From: Vicinamibacterales bacterium
GTDB lineage: Bacteria > Acidobacteriota > Vicinamibacteria > Vicinamibacterales > UBA2999
DNA: 64,000 bases
Assembly (NCBI GenBank): GCA_035711805.1
Contig: DASTBV010000155.1
Span: 68,659 to 132,658, forward strand
Direction: 5' to 3'
Shown here: one piece after another, positions 1 to 51,710 of the stretch
How positions within the stretch are numbered: the stretch's first letter is position 1
How the letters are laid out: every line of letters begins with the position of its first letter
Notes under the pieces: model-generated
What the model was told of the DNA's origin: nothing
Database searches by the model: none
The model's input: the letters and a program-made list of their open reading frames with translations, nothing else
Made by a program: the position numbers and the translations under genes

Positions 1-981
1 GCCTACGACCGCGACCTGTTCGCGGGGATCGTCGGCAATTTCGAGGTGCTGTTCTCGAATACGGTCAACGACGTCAACTACTCCAACCTGAATCTCGTGC
101 AGACCGGCACGCGGCCCGACGGCCGGCCTGTGTTCGGCCGCGTGAACAGCACGTTCAGCGACGTGATCCTGCTCCGCAACACGGACCAGGGCGACAACTG
201 GATGGTGACCGGGCAGCTCGAGCGGCGGTTCCGCGACGGCTGGTTCGCCCGTGGTGCCTACTCGTACGGGCGCTCGAACTCGATCAGCGACACGACGAAC
301 AGCACGGCGCGTTCGACGTGGCTCAACGTCTACACGCCTGGAAACATCAACGACGCGCCGCTGGCGGTCTCGAACTTCGACCTGCGGCACCGCCTCGTCC
401 TGAGCGGTTCGTATAACTTCGACGTGAAGGCCGCCAACATCCTGCTGTCGATGTTCTACAGTGGCCAGACCGGCCGTCCCTATTCGTACAACTTCGGTGT
501 CGACGTGAACGCGGACGGCTCGTCGACGAACGATCTGCTGTTCTACCCGACGCAGGACCAGGTCAATATCGTCACGTCCGGGTTCACCTATCAGGACCTG
601 GTGAACTTCGTCGAGGGCGGTGATTGCGACGGCCTCGCTCCGGGCAGCATCGTCGAGCGCAATTCGTGCCGGATGCCGTTCACCCACTCGCTCGACTTCC
701 GCGCCGCGGTGAATGTGGGAATCGGCCGCTTCCGGCCCGAGTTCACGGTTGACGTGATCAATCTTCTGAACCTCTTCGATTCCGAACTCGGGCAGGTCGA
801 ATACACCCCGTTCAGCGACATCCTGGTGACGACGACGAATCCAACCGGGGTGGCGGTCGAAACCGCGGGCAAGTACAACTACAACCTGAGCAACATCACG
901 CGCGGCGCGCAGACTCGCTTCAGCCGCGACGACCTGCGCTCCCGCTGGCAGGCGCAGATCGGAATGCGCGTGCGGTTCTAG
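1..981 (+). CDS. TonB-dependent receptor, C-terminal beta-barrel part (5' end outside window)
   Basis: Frame 1 is open from base 1. The Gly/Asn/Tyr/Ser/Asp-rich sequence looks like beta-strands and ends in ...IGMRVRF, a terminal aromatic typical of OM barrels. It lies next to a tonB-exbBD locus. Confidence 0.8.
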   Translation, partial: AYDRDLFAGIVGNFEVLFSNTVNDVNYSNLNLVQTGTRPDGRPVFGRVNSTFSDVILLRNTDQGDNWMVTGQLERRFRDGWFARGAYSYGRSNSISDTTNSTARSTWLNVYTPGNINDAPLAVSNFDLRHRLVLSGSYNFDVKAANILLSMFYSGQTGRPYSYNFGVDVNADGSSTNDLLFYPTQDQVNIVTSGFTYQDLVNFVEGGDCDGLAPGSIVERNSCRMPFTHSLDFRAAVNVGIGRFRPEFTVDVINLLNLFDSELGQVEYTPFSDILVTTTNPTGVAVETAGKYNYNLSNITRGAQTRFSRDDLRSRWQAQIGMRVRF

Positions 982-992
982 TCACGTTTCGT

Positions 993-1041
993 ACAAAACA
1001 AAAAAGCCGTCCCCCGAAAAAGGGGACGGCTTTTGTTTTGT
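993..1041. terminator. Bidirectional intrinsic terminator between convergent genes
   Basis: 13-bp GC stem AAAAGCCGTCCCC/GGGGACGGCTTTT, flanked by A-run and T-run on both sides. Confidence 0.75.
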
Positions 1042-2867: not shown

Positions 2868-3593
2868 TTAATTCAAAGTAAACGTCACCGTCACCGTCAT
2901 GATGACCGGCGTAGGCACGTTGTTCAGCATCGTGGGCGTGTACTCCCACTGCCGCACAGCGTCGACGGCCGCCTGGTCGAGCAGCGGAATCGACCGCAGC
3001 ACCTTCACGTCCTTGACCTTGCCGTCAACGCCGATCGTCGCTTCCAGGATGACGACGCCCGAGACGCGCGCCGACTGGGCGATCTGCGGGTAGGTCGGAT
3101 TCACCTTCTTGATCTGCGTTGGGGCTCTGATCTGGCCACCGACACGCACCGGCTGGGCCGGCGGCGGTGGAGGAGGCGGTGGCGGCGCGTCCGGAAGGCC
3201 ACCGACGACACCGCCGGGGACGCCGCCGGGTATGCCGCCTTCGACGCCAACGTTTCGCTCGAAGCTGGTGTCGACCGGAACCTCAGGCTTGATTTCCTTC
3301 GGAGGCTCGATCGGCGCCGCGTTCGGATTCACCTCGACGGGCCGTGGCGCCTGCGCTTGCGGCGGCGGCGGCGGCGGCGGCGGTGGGGGCGGCGGCGGCG
3401 GGGCCGCGACCGCAAAAGCCATCATGGTCGGAGGCGACGGGAGCACATCCGCCGCCATGAGCGGCACGATAACGATGAGCGCGACGACGATACCTTCAAT
3501 GAGCATCGTCATGGCGACCGAGGCGCCCTGCTTGCTACCCATCTTGATCGACGGGTCGACAATGTCGCCGAACATCCGTTCTTCGCGTGGCAC
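2868..3593 (-). CDS. tonB: Energy transducer TonB (Pro-rich spacer, TonB_C domain)
   Basis: N-terminal anchor, runs of 15 and 9 prolines, and C-terminal VNPTYPQIAQSARVSGVVILEATIGVDGKV. GTG start preceded by AGGAGGAAG. Confidence 0.85.
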   Translation of the reverse strand: MPREERMFGDIVDPSIKMGSKQGASVAMTMLIEGIVVALIVIVPLMAADVLPSPPTMMAFAVAAPPPPPPPPPPPPPPQAQAPRPVEVNPNAAPIEPPKEIKPEVPVDTSFERNVGVEGGIPGGVPGGVVGGLPDAPPPPPPPPPAQPVRVGGQIRAPTQIKKVNPTYPQIAQSARVSGVVILEATIGVDGKVKDVKVLRSIPLLDQAAVDAVRQWEYTPTMLNNVPTPVIMTVTVTFTLN

Positions 3594-13100: not shown

Positions 13101-14374
13101 TGGTAGAGGCCGACCTTTCCGCCTCCGCCGGTCGCGAGCGACCCGACGCAAGCCGCGTTGTCTGCGCGGTCCGGGTTGCGGACCGGGCTACGGCGGACCT
13201 CGCCGAAGCGCGAAGGCGGGCAGGTCGGCCTTTCATCGTGTTGGTCACGGCGGCGACGGCCGTCGCGATTGCCGCCAGCATCCCGCGCGTTACAGCACAA
13301 TCCCCAGGCCTGACCGGCGGCGAGCAGGTCGCCCGCACCTACGACACCATCCTGGATGCCCGGTTCGAAGAGGTGACTCCTCTTCTGACGGGCACATGTC
13401 CTCCAGCGCCCGCCGAAGTCTGCCAGCTCCTGGCGGTGGTCTCGATGTGGTGGCAGATTCAGCAGGATCCGCTGCAGCGTGGTCTCGATCCGACATTCCA
13501 GCAGCAGGCGGACGCGGCCATCGACCAGATGGAGCGATGGACCATGCGGGAACCCGGGCGTGCCGAAGCGTGGTTCTACCTGGGAGGCGCTGTCGGCGCG
13601 CGCGCGCAGTGGCGCGTACTGCGCGGGCAGACCGTCGCCGCGGCCCGCGACGGCAAACGCATCAAGAGCTCCCTCGAGCGGGCGCTCATGCTCGACCCTG
13701 GCCTCCTGGATGCCTACTTCGGCATCGGCCTTTACCACTATTACGCCGGGGTGGCGCCGGCCTTCGCGAAGATCCTCCGGTGGCTTCTGCTGCTGCCGGG
13801 CGGGGACCGCGAGCGCGGGCTCGACGAGATGCTGCGCGCCAGGAACGGCGGTCAACTACTCCGCAGCGAGGCCGATTACCAGCTCTATCAGATCTACCGG
13901 TGGTACGAAAAGCAGCCGTCGAGGGCGATCGAGCTGCTCACCGCTCTGGCTGCGCGCTACCCGCATAACCCGCATTTTTCTCAGCAAATCGCCGAAATCG
14001 AGGACCACACCGAGAACCACGCCGGCAGCCTCCGCGTGTGGGAAGAGCTCCGCGAGCGCGCGCGGTCCGGGCGCGTCGCAAATGCGCCAGCAGTCCTCGC
14101 GCGGGCCGAACTCGGGACGGCCCTCGAGCTCGATCACCTTGGGCGGCCCGAAGCCGCGCTCCCGCACCTGCGCGCGGTCATCGACGCGAAGCCGCGCTCA
14201 CCCGTCGGCGCCGAGGCGCTCGCGCAGCTGCAGCTGGGCAACGCCTACGACCGGCTCGCGCGCCGCGAACAGGCGATCGCGGCCTACCGCGCCGCGCTGG
14301 CGATGAACCCGGCGGGCGATCCGCTGAAGATCGAATCACGCGCGCGCACCGGACTCCGCACGCCGGCTCGATAG
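13097..14374 (+). CDS. TPR-repeat protein, probably secreted (start uncertain)
   Basis: TPR-like helical repeats. The ATGA overlap with the ddl stop favours 13097. However, 13102-13234 matches an intergenic palindromic repeat family, and a signal-like segment begins near 13238. Confidence 0.6.
   Translation: MMVEADLSASAGRERPDASRVVCAVRVADRATADLAEARRRAGRPFIVLVTAATAVAIAASIPRVTAQSPGLTGGEQVARTYDTILDARFEEVTPLLTGTCPPAPAEVCQLLAVVSMWWQIQQDPLQRGLDPTFQQQADAAIDQMERWTMREPGRAEAWFYLGGAVGARAQWRVLRGQTVAAARDGKRIKSSLERALMLDPGLLDAYFGIGLYHYYAGVAPAFAKILRWLLLLPGGDRERGLDEMLRARNGGQLLRSEADYQLYQIYRWYEKQPSRAIELLTALAARYPHNPHFSQQIAEIEDHTENHAGSLRVWEELRERARSGRVANAPAVLARAELGTALELDHLGRPEAALPHLRAVIDAKPRSPVGAEALAQLQLGNAYDRLARREQAIAAYRAALAMNPAGDPLKIESRARTGLRTPAR
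13102..13234. repeat. REP-like palindromic element, copy A
   Basis: Arms GGTAGAGGCCGACCTTTCCGCCTCCGCC and GGCGGGCAGGTCGGCCTTTC. The same arms occur in inverted order at 27692-27769. Confidence 0.6.
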
Positions 14375-14469
14375 CACGAAGGCACGAAGAGGTCGAAGGG
14401 CACGAAGAGGTCGTGGCCGCGTTAAGGGAACGGAGTCTTCGTAGCTTCGATCGCTTCGCGCCTTCGTGC
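14374..14469. repeat. Imperfect long hairpin built from CACGAAG-type repeats (likely terminator of the TPR gene)
   Basis: GGCACGAAGAGGTCG occurs twice in tandem (14381-14395 and 14398-14412). It is mirrored by CTTCGTAGCTTCGATCGCTTCGCGCCTTCGTGC. Confidence 0.5.
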
Positions 14470-14576
14470 TAATGGAGTTGATCGCTCGCGCCGACACTTG
14501 ACAGAGTGGGTGCGATTGGACGTGGCTTTCGCACGATGAAGACCGCGATCTTTTGACAAGCCGATCGATTTTGTGC

Positions 14577-14604
14577 TTGACAGTAAGAAAATCTCACCCA
14601 TAAT
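14577..14604 (+). promoter_or_regulatory. Near-consensus sigma70 promoter upstream of micro-ORF 1
   Basis: TTGACA (14577-14582), a 16-nt spacer, then CATAAT (14599-14604). Confidence 0.55.
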
Positions 14605-14698
14605 CTACATCTGGTATGAGGGTGGATGGCTCAGCCCACCCGTTGTGACGGCCAAGCGGTTCGTCGGAGGCTGAGTCGCTAACTCTAAGGAGAGCACA

Positions 14699-14749
14699 AT
14701 GGCGAAGAAGGCCAAGGGCGCGAAGAAGAAGGCCGCGAAGAAGCGGTAG
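14699..14749 (+). CDS. 16-aa Lys/Ala-rich micro-protein MAKKAKGAKKKAAKKR (copy 1)
   Basis: AAGGAG lies 6 nt before the ATG, with a promoter upstream and a strong terminator downstream. A second copy at 14990 differs only at synonymous positions. Confidence 0.55.
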   Translation: MAKKAKGAKKKAAKKR

Positions 14750-14768
14750 TTCTTCGACAAGGCTTCAA

Positions 14769-14800
14769 GGGGTGCTCGCCAAGGGCACCCCATTTTTTTT
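14769..14800 (+). terminator. Rho-independent terminator after micro-ORF 1
   Basis: GGGGTGC...GCACCCC stem followed by an 8-T run. Confidence 0.8.
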
Positions 14801-14989
14801 ATCTCTCGATTCACAGCACCTAGTTGACGCGCTCCCGATGACACGCACGCCACACCGCGTGTCGAAGTTCTGCGGGAGTGTCCCACGAAGCGAGAACGCC
14901 GGTATCCGGCCCGACGTGCCAGGCGGCAGGGTGCGCCGGGTACCGTGGCGCACATCTCGCGAATAGTTCACGTGAAGGGGGGGATTCAG

Positions 14990-15040
14990 ATGGCGAAGAA
15001 GGCAAAGGGCGCGAAGAAGAAGGCCGCGAAGAAGCGCTAA
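14990..15040 (+). CDS. 16-aa Lys/Ala-rich micro-protein MAKKAKGAKKKAAKKR (copy 2)
   Basis: Identical peptide, with a GAAGGGGGGG purine-rich RBS. The 3 nt differences from copy 1 are GCC/GCA, CGG/CGC and the stop TAG/TAA. Confidence 0.5.
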   Translation: MAKKAKGAKKKAAKKR

Positions 15041-15062
15041 CTTCGAAAGCCAGAGGGCGGGG

Positions 15063-17234
15063 TTACTGCGATGCGGTGACCCCGTCCCAAATCCGCACGC
15101 TGCGCACGATATCCCACTGCGCAATCCGATCGACAACCTCCATCCCGCTGACTACGTGCCCGAACACGGTGTACCGCGCATCCAGGTGCGGCTGCGGTGA
15201 GTGCGTGATGAAGAACTGGCTCCCGCCCGTATCCTTCCCCGCGAGCGCCATTCCCACCGTCCCACGCAGATACGGACGCTGATTGATTTCATCGCGGATG
15301 GTGTAGCCGGGACCGCCCTCCCCGTCGCCGCGCGGGTCGCCGTCCTGGACCACGAAGTCCGGCACGACGCGATGAATGGCGAGGCCGTTGAAGTATCCCT
15401 TCCGGGCGAGCGTCACGAAGTTGTCCACGGTCAGCGGAGCATCCAGTACCGCCAGCTCGATCTCAATCGTGCCCTTGTCGGTTTCGATGAACGCGTGCGG
15501 GGAATACTTCGGATTCACCAACGTGAGGATCCGCTGCTCGTCGGCGGCGACGTCCGACGGCGCGGGGCGCATCGCCGCGTCCACGTCGGCGGCGCCGCCC
15601 GGTCGCAGGACCGCCGCTGCCCGCAAGCGCAGCGCCCAGTCCTTGTCCGTCAGTGCCTGTTGGAGCATCTGCCGCCCGGTTGCGGGTTCGATGGCAGTAA
15701 TCGCGGTGAGTATCGCGTCCCTGGCGCCATAAGTGACGTCGCCGAGCGCGATCTTGTACGCCTCGAGGAGCGCCGGAATCATCGCCGCGGACTTGAGCTC
15801 GCCGAGCGCCGTCGCCGCAGCCGCACGGACGGCAAAATCGTCGGCCTGCAGCTTCTCGAGCAGGATCTTCTCGAAACCCTGGGGCTTGCTCGCCGCCAGC
15901 GCCTCGAGCGCCGCGGGCACCACGCGCTGATCGCGGTCCTCCAGCAGCGCCCGGAGCCGTGGGAGGCTGCGCTCGCCCGGAAGCGTTCCAAGCGCCGCCG
16001 CTTCAGCCACGCGGACGCTCCAGTCCCGGTCCGGTTCCAGACCCGCAAGCGTGGCAATGAAAACGTCGGGATCCACCCGCGCCAGCGCCCGGAGCGCTGT
16101 GCCACGGATTCCGGGCAGCGGATCCATCATCAGGTCGATGAGCAGATCTGCGTGTTCAGCGGCCGCGAGCGCGCCGATGCTGGTCGCCGCCTCCAGCCGT
16201 AACCCGGGATCGGCGGATCGATCCGCCACGATCTTGACCAGCAGTGCGATCGCGGCTGGCTCCGCGAGCGCTCCCAGACCGCGCACCGCCTGAATCACGA
16301 CCGCCGGATGGGCTTTCCGCGCCTCGACGATCTGCCGCAAAGCGGCCGCCGCCTGCGGCGCTTTGAGGCCGGCCAGACCGCGGGCGGAAAACGCCGCCGT
16401 GTAACGCCCCGGCGTAGTGAGCAGCGCGAGGAGGGCCGGGGCGGCGCGTGGATCATTGATGCGCCCGAGCGCGTACGCCACCGGCCACCAGCGCGAGACA
16501 GGCTGGCCGGAAGCGTCGAGCACCGCGGCCGCAAGCGCGTCGTATGACCCGAGCCGCACGAGGGCGTAGATCGCCAGTCTCGCCGCGTCCGCCGCGGGCG
16601 CCAGCGGATACGTCAGATCGTCGGGCTCGATGCCGTTGAGCGCACCCGCCGCAATCTGCCGGCGAACGATGCCGCTGACCGCGTCCGCATCGGCGCGATT
16701 GCCGATCGAGCCGAGGGCTTCAGCCGCCCGGCCCTGGACGATCGGCTCGGGATCATCGAGCGACTTGAGCAGCGCCGCACGCGCCGACTGGTGCCCAATG
16801 AGGCCGAGCGCAAAGGCCGCCATCTGCCGCACCTCGACGTCTGCGTCCGCCAGCAGCGGAAGCAGCGGTTCGACTCCTTCGACCAGCCCGACGCGCCCGA
16901 CGGCAAGAGCGGCCCGCCGTCTGACGCGTCCTTCTCCGTCGCCGAGCATCGGAATCAGATCCGACGGTGCGGGACGCGCATAGACCGCCGGCGTCTTCAG
17001 CGTCGCCGGCTGCAGGATTGCCGGTGGCGGCGGAGAGGGGTCCTTGAGGATCCGCTGGTCCTCGAGCCTGATCACCCACGCGAGCTTCTCTTCCGGCGTG
17101 ATGTCGGGGGGCGGCGCTGGGGCGGAGGGAACGACCGTGGCAACCGGGACGGAGGCACACGACGCGGCCGCAAGCGCAAGGCAGAATGAAAGGAGCCGCC
17201 ATGCGTGCATTCGCGGCGATGATAGCATCCTCAT
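15063..17234 (-). CDS. HEAT-repeat protein fused to a C-terminal cyclophilin-type peptidylprolyl isomerase (lipoprotein-like signal)
   Basis: Many HEAT/PBS-lyase-like repeats (VR.RAA.ALG). The C-terminal cyclophilin motifs are [31 protein letters not shown] lipobox. The start is 17234 (MRML) or 17210 (MHAW). Confidence 0.85.
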
Positions 17235-17244
17235 CTCACCAGTC

Positions 17245-17880
17245 ATGCACCGGTACATCGCGATCGAGGGGCCGATCGGCGTCGGCAAGACCGCGCTCGC
17301 CACGCGTCTCGCCAGCCGGCTGGATGCAACGACGGTGCTCGAAGAAACCGAGAACCCCTTCCTTGCGGATTTCTACGCCGGACGGCCGGGCGCCGCGCTG
17401 CAGGCACAGCTCTTCTACCTGCTCAACCGGCATCGGCAGCAGATGTCGCTCCGCCAGGGAAATCTTTTTGCGCAGGCCACGGTTTCAGACTATCTGTTCG
17501 ACCGCGACAAGGTCTTCGCCTACCTGAACCTCGACGACAACGAGCTGTTCATTTACCAGCGCCTCTACGATCTGCTCTCCAAGGACGTGTCTCCACCTGA
17601 CCTCGTCGTTTACCTCCAGGCACCGACGGACGTCCTGCTCCGCCGTCAACGGGATCGGGAGAAGGAGATCGAGGATGACATTCCGGAGCCCGCGGCGGAC
17701 TATCTGCGCGAGCTGAACGAGGCGTATCAGCATTTCTTTTTTCATTACACGGCGACGCCGCTACTGGTGGTGGAAACGTCCCAATTCGACCTGGCCGGCA
17801 GCGACACCGCGCTCGACGACCTGATCAGGCAGATCCGCGGAATGGGCCGTGGAACGCAGTACTACGTGCCCAGAGGCTGA
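17245..17880 (+). CDS. Deoxynucleoside kinase family protein
   Basis: [13 protein letters not shown]-loop and the dNK-like layout. An internal ATG was chosen over the long ORF-track start. Confidence 0.85.
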
Positions 17881-29271: not shown

Positions 29272-30891
<1,620 letters not shown>

Positions 30892-30896
30892 TCAGG

Positions 30897-30985
30897 ATCG
30901 CCGCGCTCCCTCCGCCGGTCTGAACCGGGTCAGGTTCCAAGGGTCTGTCTCAATCCCGGTACTCCGGGATACCCCTGGCGGCCTT
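30897..30985 (-). promoter_or_regulatory. TPP (THI-box) riboswitch upstream of thiC
   Basis: The minus-strand RNA reads GGGGUAUCCCGGAGUACCGGGAUUGAGACAGACCCUUGGAACCUGACCCGGUUCAGACCGGCGGAGGGA, matching the conserved UGAGA and ACCUGA...GGGA cores. The aptamer's GGGAGC can pair with GCUCCC abutting the AUG. A TATAAT lies at 30990-30995 on the minus strand. Confidence 0.85.
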
Positions 30986-31035
30986 TGCGATTATACGTCG
31001 CTGTCCGCGACCACTCCTGACCATACAATTCCAGT

Positions 31036-51635: not shown

Positions 51636-51710
51636 GCCGGTATCGTCTAGGGGTTAGGACGGGTGGTTCTCAGCCATCAAACCGGGGTTCGAATCCCCGT
51701 ACCGGTACCA
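51636..51710 (+). tRNA. tRNA-Glu: tRNA-Glu (anticodon CUC), CCA encoded
   Basis: Hand-folded cloverleaf with a 7-bp acceptor (GCCGGTA/TACCGGT), a D stem GTCT/GGAC and an anticodon stem GGTGG/CCATC. The anticodon loop is TTCTCAG and the T arm is CGGGG-TTCGAAT-CCCCG, followed by A-CCA. Confidence 0.9.

Follow-up and report, generated by a model that had tools for sequence, protein, structure and literature searches.

Can a reading frame of sixteen codons be a gene, and what does it mean when a bacterial genome carries two of them that spell the same peptide between unrelated flanks? The question is raised by a 64,000-nucleotide stretch of DNA from a Vicinamibacterales bacterium of the phylum Acidobacteriota (assembly GCA_035711805.1, contig DASTBV010000155.1, forward-strand positions 68,659 to 132,658), referred to below, at its full length, as the window. 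Two plus-strand open reading frames (ORFs) in this window, micro-ORF 1 (ORF1, 14699-14749) and micro-ORF 2 (ORF2, 14990-15040), each run from ATG to TAR and encode the same 16-residue product, MAKKAKGAKKKAAKKR. The ORF1 DNA is ATGGCGAAGAAGGCCAAGGGCGCGAAGAAGAAGGCCGCGAAGAAGCGGTAG, and ORF2 consists of the same letters except for GCA, CGC, and TAA; the three base differences are all silent (GCC/GCA at codon 5, CGG/CGC at codon 16, and the stop codons TAG/TAA). A 47-nt pattern allowed up to three mismatches matches only these two sites in the 64 kb, where shuffled sequences give an expectation of 0.00, and a repeat finder confines the direct repeat to a 50-nt unit of 96% identity whose flanks have no sequence in common. 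The twin ORFs with silent-only differences, described in an initial annotation made from the letters of this DNA, were thus borne out by direct reading, pattern search, and repeat finder alike, as was the mutual dissimilarity of their flanks. These flanks are nevertheless not neutral spacer, since both prove to be conserved structured leaders (leader A before ORF1, leader B before ORF2). The explanation that we favor, with some reserve, is that the two ORFs are conserved genes for a polycationic micro-protein, organized as a leader-controlled tandem unit.

Relatives of the locus were collected in two scans. The genome scan covered one genome per species with a degenerate pattern that fixes the first ten codons only; it catches only peptides starting with MAKKAKGAKK, so that its count is a lower bound, and it returned 18 loci, all from Acidobacteriota and mostly labelled Vicinamibacterales. 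The metagenome scan, which used a looser pattern, added at least 120 further loci on contigs that carry no taxonomy. In all, at least 139 sources were available, and the counts given below are those among the matches listed. The 139 listed sources hold at least 206 micro-ORFs of 13-20 codons, with peptides of 13-18 amino acids in Vicinamibacterales-type loci and one 20-residue variant (locus L006), and tandem pairs with 208-371 nt between the ORFs occur in at least 67 of the sources. The consensus peptide is MAKKA(A)KG[AG]KKK[AG][AG]KKR, with 16-17 residues. In most relatives the orthologue of ORF1 has 17 amino acids, MAKKAAKG[AG]KKKAAKKR, owing to an in-frame 3-nt indel, and the copy type represented by ORF2 is also present in relatives with a single copy.

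Both scans were seeded with the peptide, and silent-only variation at the matched codons is therefore largely by construction; the unbiased evidence is restricted to free codons, partner ORFs, gap lengths, and leader-anchored counts. In the genome scan, which left the tail unconstrained, 19 of the 21 ORFs found in the 18 Acidobacteriota genomes end in KAAKKR and a stop codon. The free tail, that is, the last six codons plus stop, occurs in 12 distinct DNA versions among 20 ORFs, 11 of which encode KAAKKR and stop, and nine of the 11 alternative codons are silent, including Arg CGG/CGC/CGA/CGT/AGA and TAG/TAA, compared with 22% of random single changes that would be silent by chance (P about 5e-5). 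The metagenome pattern left the length of an inner gap free between 3 and 12 nt, and in all 155 listed matches the gap measures 3, 6, 9, or 12 nt. Partner ORFs that lie outside the scan patterns (12 ORFs in the genome loci and 16 in the metagenome loci) are all intact, with differences limited to in-frame indels or single residues. When the search is anchored on the core of leader B instead of the ORF, 89 of 92 listed cases lead into an intact lysine-rich ORF, and of the remaining three, two are artefacts of the anchoring and one is an ORF that starts with GTG. This last case, on the plus strand of locus L075 at about 3140-3200, is an ORF2 that reads …GATAACAGCA GTG GCC AAG AAA… and is otherwise intact. 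A replacement of lysine by arginine is never seen inside the peptide, free codons included, and in the alignment of the genome loci conservation collapses right past the ORF2 stop codon. Because of these features, which the scan patterns left free, we consider it highly probable that both ORFs are real translated genes, and the peptide sequence is, as judged from codon-level comparison, under purifying selection. The reading frame, which the initial annotation expected relatives to conserve, is kept in them, with indels in frame and free-codon changes mostly silent.

The same pattern of variation bears on the idea that the locus encodes a protein on the minus strand, where ORFs span 14605-14955 and 14765-15136, or that it is a non-coding low-complexity or mobile repeat. 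In many loci, long antisense frames do stay open over the unit, which is usual for G+C-rich DNA; however, the variation follows the sense codons, and the sequence between the ORFs shows compensatory changes of RNA pairs. The spacing of ORF1 and ORF2 does not favor multiples of three (26/21/19), so that no frame is kept across the unit, and the unit occupies one fixed syntenic site, once per locus, which is not the behavior of a mobile repeat. Antisense coding and a non-coding repeat can thus be regarded as essentially excluded.

How the two copies stay so similar is suggested by comparison within genomes, where paralogues match at the variable residues (GA/GG at residues 7-8 and AA/GG at residues 12-13). 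This residue sharing points to concerted evolution over a tract of only ~50 nt and suggests gene conversion or common selection, either of which would account for near-identical copies despite unrelated flanks.

Gene order places the unit in a stable setting. In most listed loci the order is ddl-(TPR protein)-micro-ORFs-<HEAT/cyclophilin-(dNK-like ORF)-accD, and the convergent cyclophilin gene is present at 113 of 138 listed loci, with identity down to about 45-50%. As synteny persists where the identity of the neighbor has dropped so far, the unit therefore appears to be old and positionally stable in its lineage. The neighboring genes (ddl, the TPR protein, the HEAT-cyclophilin fusion, the dNK-like ORF, and accD) gave no hint at the function of the micro-ORFs. 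In the window, the next gene lies on the minus strand at 15063-17303 and converges on the micro-ORFs; in its 746-aa product, HEAT repeats are fused to a C-terminal prolyl isomerase of the cyclophilin type, and there is an N-terminal hydrophobic stretch. The absence of a co-oriented gene after the unit, as reported initially, is hence confirmed.

Expression signals surround ORF1 closely. An intrinsic terminator, T1 (14769-14800, plus strand, z-score -2.9), starts 20 nt past the ORF1 stop with a 9-bp G+C-rich stem (14769-14791) that is followed by T8; it is the sole terminator-like site in 14000-15600, and in the alignment of relatives GGGGTG...CACCCC and a T run are kept after every ORF that is preceded by leader A. 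In the main clade, the ORF1 stop is followed by a conserved TTCTTC (within 14745-14765 in the window) that can pair with GAAGAA of the last lysine codons or with the ORF start, an inverted repeat whose pairing would place the ORF1 stop codon in a small hairpin loop.

Such an arrangement recalls the attenuator peptides of the his, trp, and thr operons, which are likewise short ORFs rich in one amino acid followed by an intrinsic terminator, and the micro-ORFs could accordingly be imagined as lysine-sensing leader peptides in which the speed of the ribosome over eight lysine codons sets the formation of T1. Lysine does occupy 8 of 16 codons, the terminator is close behind, and TTCTTC could pair with GAAGAA inside the ORF. 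What is missing is a gene to regulate: downstream of ORF1 there is only a second copy of the same ORF and then the convergent gene, and in single-copy relatives the ORF leads directly into a terminator, followed by the same convergent gene. No antiterminator alternative was found for T1. Moreover, alanine, glycine, and the terminal arginine are conserved as well, whereas leader peptides tolerate change outside their regulatory codons; conservation here extends over the whole peptide. Chiefly because no regulated gene lies downstream, lysine attenuation is very improbable, and the conclusion drawn earlier that the peptides are not leaders of a downstream gene stands.

Upstream of ORF1, a sigma-70-type promoter, TTGACA-16-CATAAT (14577-14604, plus strand), has 11 of 12 matches, and both of its hexamers are kept in all relatives. 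It is the sole promoter-like site in 14000-15600, with a predicted transcription start at about 14610-14612. Directly before it lies a conserved, T-rich block (14548-14576, plus strand; TCTTTTGACAAG...GATTTTGTGC) that contains a second TTGACA at 14553-14558 and is kept across 15 genome loci; this block could act as an UP element, as a site for an activator, or as a second promoter. Leader A itself spans 14604-14698 (plus strand). It includes the ORF1 Shine-Dalgarno sequence AAGGAG (14687-14692), 6 nt before the ATG, in which AGGAG is invariant in 62 sequences. Promoter, ribosome-binding site, and terminator of copy 1 were therefore all located where the initial annotation had placed them. Its description of an autonomous mini-gene holds for copy 1 only, since copy 2 has no sigma-70-like promoter and sits behind the terminator of copy 1.

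Leader A opens at the transcript start with an 18-nt motif, TCTACATCTGGTATGAGG (14604-14621, plus strand), whose columns are invariant in 62 distinct leader A sequences and which occurs once in the window and exactly once in 108 of 138 listed loci. This motif is followed by three predicted helices. Hairpin P1 (14620-14641) pairs GGGTGG (14620-14625) with CCACCC (14636-14641); 95.7% of its alignment cells are paired, yet P1 hardly varies among leader A sequences. Its counterpart in single-copy relatives has 90.9% of cells paired, compared with 40-60% when slid, and the changes pass mainly via G-U intermediates; the support for P1 is thus moderate. The P1 loop holds GCTCAGC (14629-14635), which can form a long-range helix with GCTGAGT (14670-14676). 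This helix (14629-14676), found independently by RNAalifold, has 95.9% of cells paired; one pair has changed in a compensatory way from C-G to G-C, and several changes are of the G-C/G-U kind. Between its strands, the sequence-variable hairpin P2 (14647-14665) pairs GACGG (14647-14651) with TCGTC (14661-14665), and four of its five pairs have changed on both sides. Together, P1 and the long-range helix make a plausible candidate for an H-type pseudoknot, for which the evidence is only moderate because so much of leader A is invariant.

Two short frames within leader A were examined as coding candidates and rejected. A 33-aa ORF (14573-14674) starts upstream of the -35 box, is frameshifted in locus L008, and joins ORF1 in L010 and others only through a single TGA->TGG change. 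A 10-codon upstream ORF with its ATG at 14616 varies at first and second codon positions, and in some single-copy leaders its conserved GTWGTRA is out of frame. In L010 (5307-5600, plus strand) and similar loci, a 97-codon ORF consequently begins ahead of the promoter, crosses the leader, and enters ORF1 in frame; gene callers could list it as a spurious hypothetical protein, and the exact L010 sequence is not in a collection of 15 billion proteins.

An invariant transcript start also invites the view that the RNA is the main product, namely a dual-function or regulatory small RNA of ~190 nt, from the promoter to T1, in which the micro-ORF is a secondary passenger (compare SgrS/SgrT and RNAIII/hld) and the invariant 5′ end serves as a base-pairing seed or protein-binding site. 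The first 18 transcribed bases are conserved above the third codon positions of the ORF, the transcript is short, with a strong promoter and an intrinsic terminator at its end, and both leaders have conserved structure. Against this, the peptide is under strong purifying selection, so that translation and peptide identity matter. Owing to the invariant 5′ end, this dual-function RNA is the rival to be taken most seriously; it is compatible with the coding evidence and with the explanation that we favor, and as an account of what the locus is mainly for we rate it as improbable.

The leader-controlled gene pair that we prefer draws its firmest structural evidence from leader B (14801-14989, plus strand, z-score -2.0), which consists of a variable hairpin (14829-14881), a core hairpin (14888-14966), and a G-rich Shine-Dalgarno sequence, GAAGGGGGGGAT (14974-14985), located 4 nt before the ORF2 ATG, or 6 nt counted from the last G of the run, and nearly invariant in 87 sequences. 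The core forms a long, irregular hairpin. GCGAGA (14890-14895) and TCTCGC (14955-14960) make up its outer stem, the stems in the middle covary, and it further has an internal loop that is conserved and, at its apex, the hairpin TGCC-AGGC-GGCA (14917-14928). The separate minimum-energy folds of about 40 relatives give one common architecture for this core. RNAalifold, when applied to a broad MAFFT alignment of leader B in which the variable stems were misaligned, recovered the apical hairpin only, and a clade seed and a covariance model were then used. In the plain MAFFT seed alignment, 85% of core cells are paired, compared with 27-49% when slid, and there are eight compensatory pairs. The covariance model built from this seed, R1, was run on the window and on the first 100 sources. 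In the 64-kb window it has a single match at E<=1, on the leader B core, with 92.9 bits; in the 100 sources, all matches with E<0.05 are located immediately before ORF2 or before a single ORF, and the only matches elsewhere are four weak, noise-like ones (E 0.05-0.6). The model-based alignment shows compensatory changes in 23 of 26 pairs, with 193 cells compared with 56 in shuffles, a covariation figure that is inflated in that the alignment was fitted to R1 itself. Structure thus stands in a fixed position upstream of one type of gene, clearly so for the leader B core and more weakly for leader A, each locus having either element once, and on this comparative evidence leader B is likely to be a functional structured element.

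How ORF2 is expressed follows in part from its position. No sigma-70-like promoter for it was detected in the window or in 64 leader B sequences of two-copy relatives, and it lies behind the terminator of copy 1; for these reasons, ORF2 probably depends on read-through of the terminator at 14769-14800, and the two ORFs more likely share one transcription unit that carries a terminator inside it. In the window, the minimum-energy fold has AUCUCUC (14801-14807), right after this terminator, paired with GGGGGAU (14979-14985), so that the Shine-Dalgarno sequence of ORF2 would be hidden; the AUCUCUC partner is kept in only part of the relatives. Past ORF2, a hairpin at 15055-15087 (plus strand; 15 bp, -28.8 kcal/mol, z-score -4.0, without a T run) overlaps the convergent HEAT-cyclophilin gene at its final codons and stop and probably serves as a 3′ end or as a bidirectional terminator. 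Relatives have different hairpins at this site, or terminators composed of an A run, a hairpin, and a T run.

The origin of the two leaders is suggested by the loci with one ORF, of which at least 44 are distinct and in which the peptide is mostly MAKKAKGGKKKAGKKR. Their leader starts with the promoter and 5′ motif of leader A and the P1 hairpin and continues with the leader B core and its G-rich Shine-Dalgarno sequence. Since both modules thus precede one ORF in single-copy relatives, leaders A and B of the window are the two halves of what is elsewhere one composite leader. Among the 67 listed pairs, the leader A motif precedes the first ORF in 59 and the G-rich Shine-Dalgarno sequence of leader B the second in 65, and the reversed order was not found. 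The two-gene form looks like an old duplication, or an insertion of an ORF plus terminator inside the composite leader.

Two further kinds of locus were noted in the metagenome material. On one 4-kb contig (L092), two near-identical single-copy units, promoter and leader included, stand in inverted orientation (3013-3063, plus strand; 981-1031, minus strand), which is due either to an inverted duplication or to an error of assembly. Another type of mini-gene, with the product MAKKAKKKKAKKKK or MAKKAKKATKKKAKKKK, is found on contigs of 55-60% G+C in L041 (946-999, minus strand), L046 (677-721, plus strand), L063 (382-426, plus strand), and L108 (7558-7602, minus strand, adjoining kdpA). A conserved leader of its own, GTTTTTGTGCGAATCGG...CAACAAAGGAGCTCCACC, precedes it, two hairpins downstream are likewise conserved, and it may be a homologous family of another lineage or a convergent one.

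The initial annotation had allowed that the region might belong to a known structured non-coding RNA in which the ORFs would be incidental, and no Rfam family covers it. A permissive search of 14300-15200 with Rfam 15 returned only noise at E>=0.05, far below the gathering scores, and neither the surroundings of the micro-ORFs in 13 related loci nor one single-copy leader gave a match. Over the whole 64-kb window, Rfam at gathering thresholds reports only a thiamine pyrophosphate (TPP) riboswitch (30889-30986, minus strand, 63 bits) and a tRNA gene (51636-51707, plus strand). A further structural feature lies directly past the stop of the TPR gene, at 14372-14471, where an inverted repeat with 27-nt arms, 89% complementary and 46 nt apart, holds two tandem copies of GGCACGAAGAGGTCG and draws a spurious weak microRNA match in Rfam; it may be a terminator or an element similar to repetitive extragenic palindromes (REP-like).

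What the peptide does has to be approached through its composition. The window peptide contains eight lysines, one arginine, five alanines, one glycine, and the initiator methionine, so that 56% of it (9/16) is Lys/Arg. It has no hydrophobic core, signal sequence, or transmembrane helix, its only hydrophobic residues being alanine and the initiator methionine, and a type I toxin or small membrane protein, which needs a hydrophobic transmembrane helix, was accordingly rejected. The collection of 15 billion proteins contains no extended, read-through version of the ORFs, and literature searches with peptide strings and for small basic proteins of Acidobacteria found nothing. Given this composition, the binding of RNA or DNA by a polycation is the most economical role to propose, and we see about an even chance for it.

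A ribosomal form of this role was raised in the initial annotation. bS22 and bL37 are tiny basic ribosomal proteins that had gone unannotated, and more of their kind are expected by the authors who described them (PMC10618245); the bS22 of Borrelia is 61% Lys/Arg, and such proteins are usually unannotated, lineage-restricted, and expressed from free-standing mini-genes (PMC10618245). With bS22, bL37, bTHX, and eL41 the present genes share the very short, strongly basic product and the free-standing, unannotated gene, a feature that is necessary but not specific. The known proteins, however, have 24-45 amino acids, are Arg-rich, and include some hydrophobic or aromatic residues, whereas the present peptide has 13-18 amino acids (20 in L006), consists of Lys, Ala, and Gly only, and has arginine only at its end. 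By this analogy, a ribosomal place is conceivable and, in our judgment, rather unlikely. The C-terminal domain of histone H1, the tails of mycobacterial HupB, and Chlamydia Hc1 are Lys/Ala-rich electrostatic binders of DNA or RNA, and these segments resemble the peptide in composition and in AKK/KKA periodicity. They are tails or domains of larger proteins, whereas here the segment is the whole predicted protein, with its own promoter, leaders, and terminators.

The architecture of the locus also has precedents. The Downstream-peptide motif, a glutamine-II riboswitch, precedes short ORFs in cyanobacteria and marine metagenomes, and the coding status of those ORFs was likewise inferred from silent changes and indels of 3n (PMC2864571). 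It is the closest described architecture, a pseudoknotted conserved 5′ leader directly before a very short conserved ORF, but the present leaders have no Rfam match and differ from it in sequence, fold, and phylum. The rpsO/S15 pseudoknot is an autoregulatory leader of a ribosomal-protein operon. As in that system, a structured leader or candidate pseudoknot adjoins the Shine-Dalgarno sequence of a gene for a small basic protein, although here it is predicted only and the matches of the leader to Escherichia coli ribosomal RNA (rRNA) are within chance. Micro-protein genes with structured leaders are hence known, while the present family, its two RNA motifs, and the tandem with a split leader have, as far as our comparisons reach, not been described.

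Taken together, these features are compatible with the following mechanism. A single strong sigma-70-type promoter would transcribe the whole unit, beginning with leader A, with its invariant 5′ end and pseudoknot-like fold, a good Shine-Dalgarno sequence, and ORF1, and reaching the intrinsic terminator. Transcripts that read through would enter leader B, with its long hairpin and a G-rich Shine-Dalgarno sequence that can be paired away, and then reach ORF2 and the final hairpin. The copies would be kept near-identical by purifying selection and probably also by gene conversion. The elaborate leaders argue for tight post-transcriptional control, and they would act on translation, most likely through feedback by the peptide or another RNA-binding factor, or through ligand sensing. 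The peptide, in turn, would bind nucleic acid electrostatically, in a pocket of the ribosome or rRNA or on the nucleoid. In the boldest version of this proposal, the ribosome (or nucleoid) of Vicinamibacteria would have the peptide as a new structural component, which represses its own synthesis by binding the conserved leader hairpin or pseudoknot, a speculation that we hold to be unlikely.

Several observations weigh against this overall explanation, in addition to the peptide-seeded scans and the fitting of the covariation alignment to its own model. The helices of leader A are mostly invariant, which leaves its fold weakly proven. Mimicry of rRNA by blocks of the leaders, which would have spoken for autoregulation in the manner of ribosomal proteins, was not supported in a comparison that used E. 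coli 16S, 23S, and 5S rRNA as a proxy: only matches of 8-9 nt were found, at chance level (ATGGCTCAG equals 16S 19-27, and TGCCAGGC the 5S 3′ end; p 0.03-0.4 over about 30 tests). Among PDB chains, a profile built from 18 variants of the peptide had 0 matches at E<=10, a search of low power given its 17 profile positions. Finally, both the function of the peptide and the identity of the regulator are deduced from composition and architecture alone.

Proteins of 16 residues fall below the reach of gene callers, and the comparative support for this family is unusually strong, extending over a class of abundant, poorly cultured soil bacteria in which the genes hold one syntenic site, often in two copies. 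For the biology of Acidobacteria, the locus offers a candidate for a missing ribosomal or nucleoid component, together with two new candidate regulatory RNA motifs that have a clear genetic read-out. It also represents a clean case of a gene-plus-leader unit that duplicated and split its leader, and its almost pure Lys/Ala peptide, encoded in a genome of 66% G+C, provides a natural test of why some nucleic-acid binders use lysine over arginine. If the boldest version of the proposal is true, the unit would combine a peptide-sensing RNA operator with a minimal nucleic-acid-binding protein made from two differently controlled copies, and this protein, at 16-17 residues, would be shorter than the tiny ribosomal proteins of 24-45 amino acids with which it was compared.

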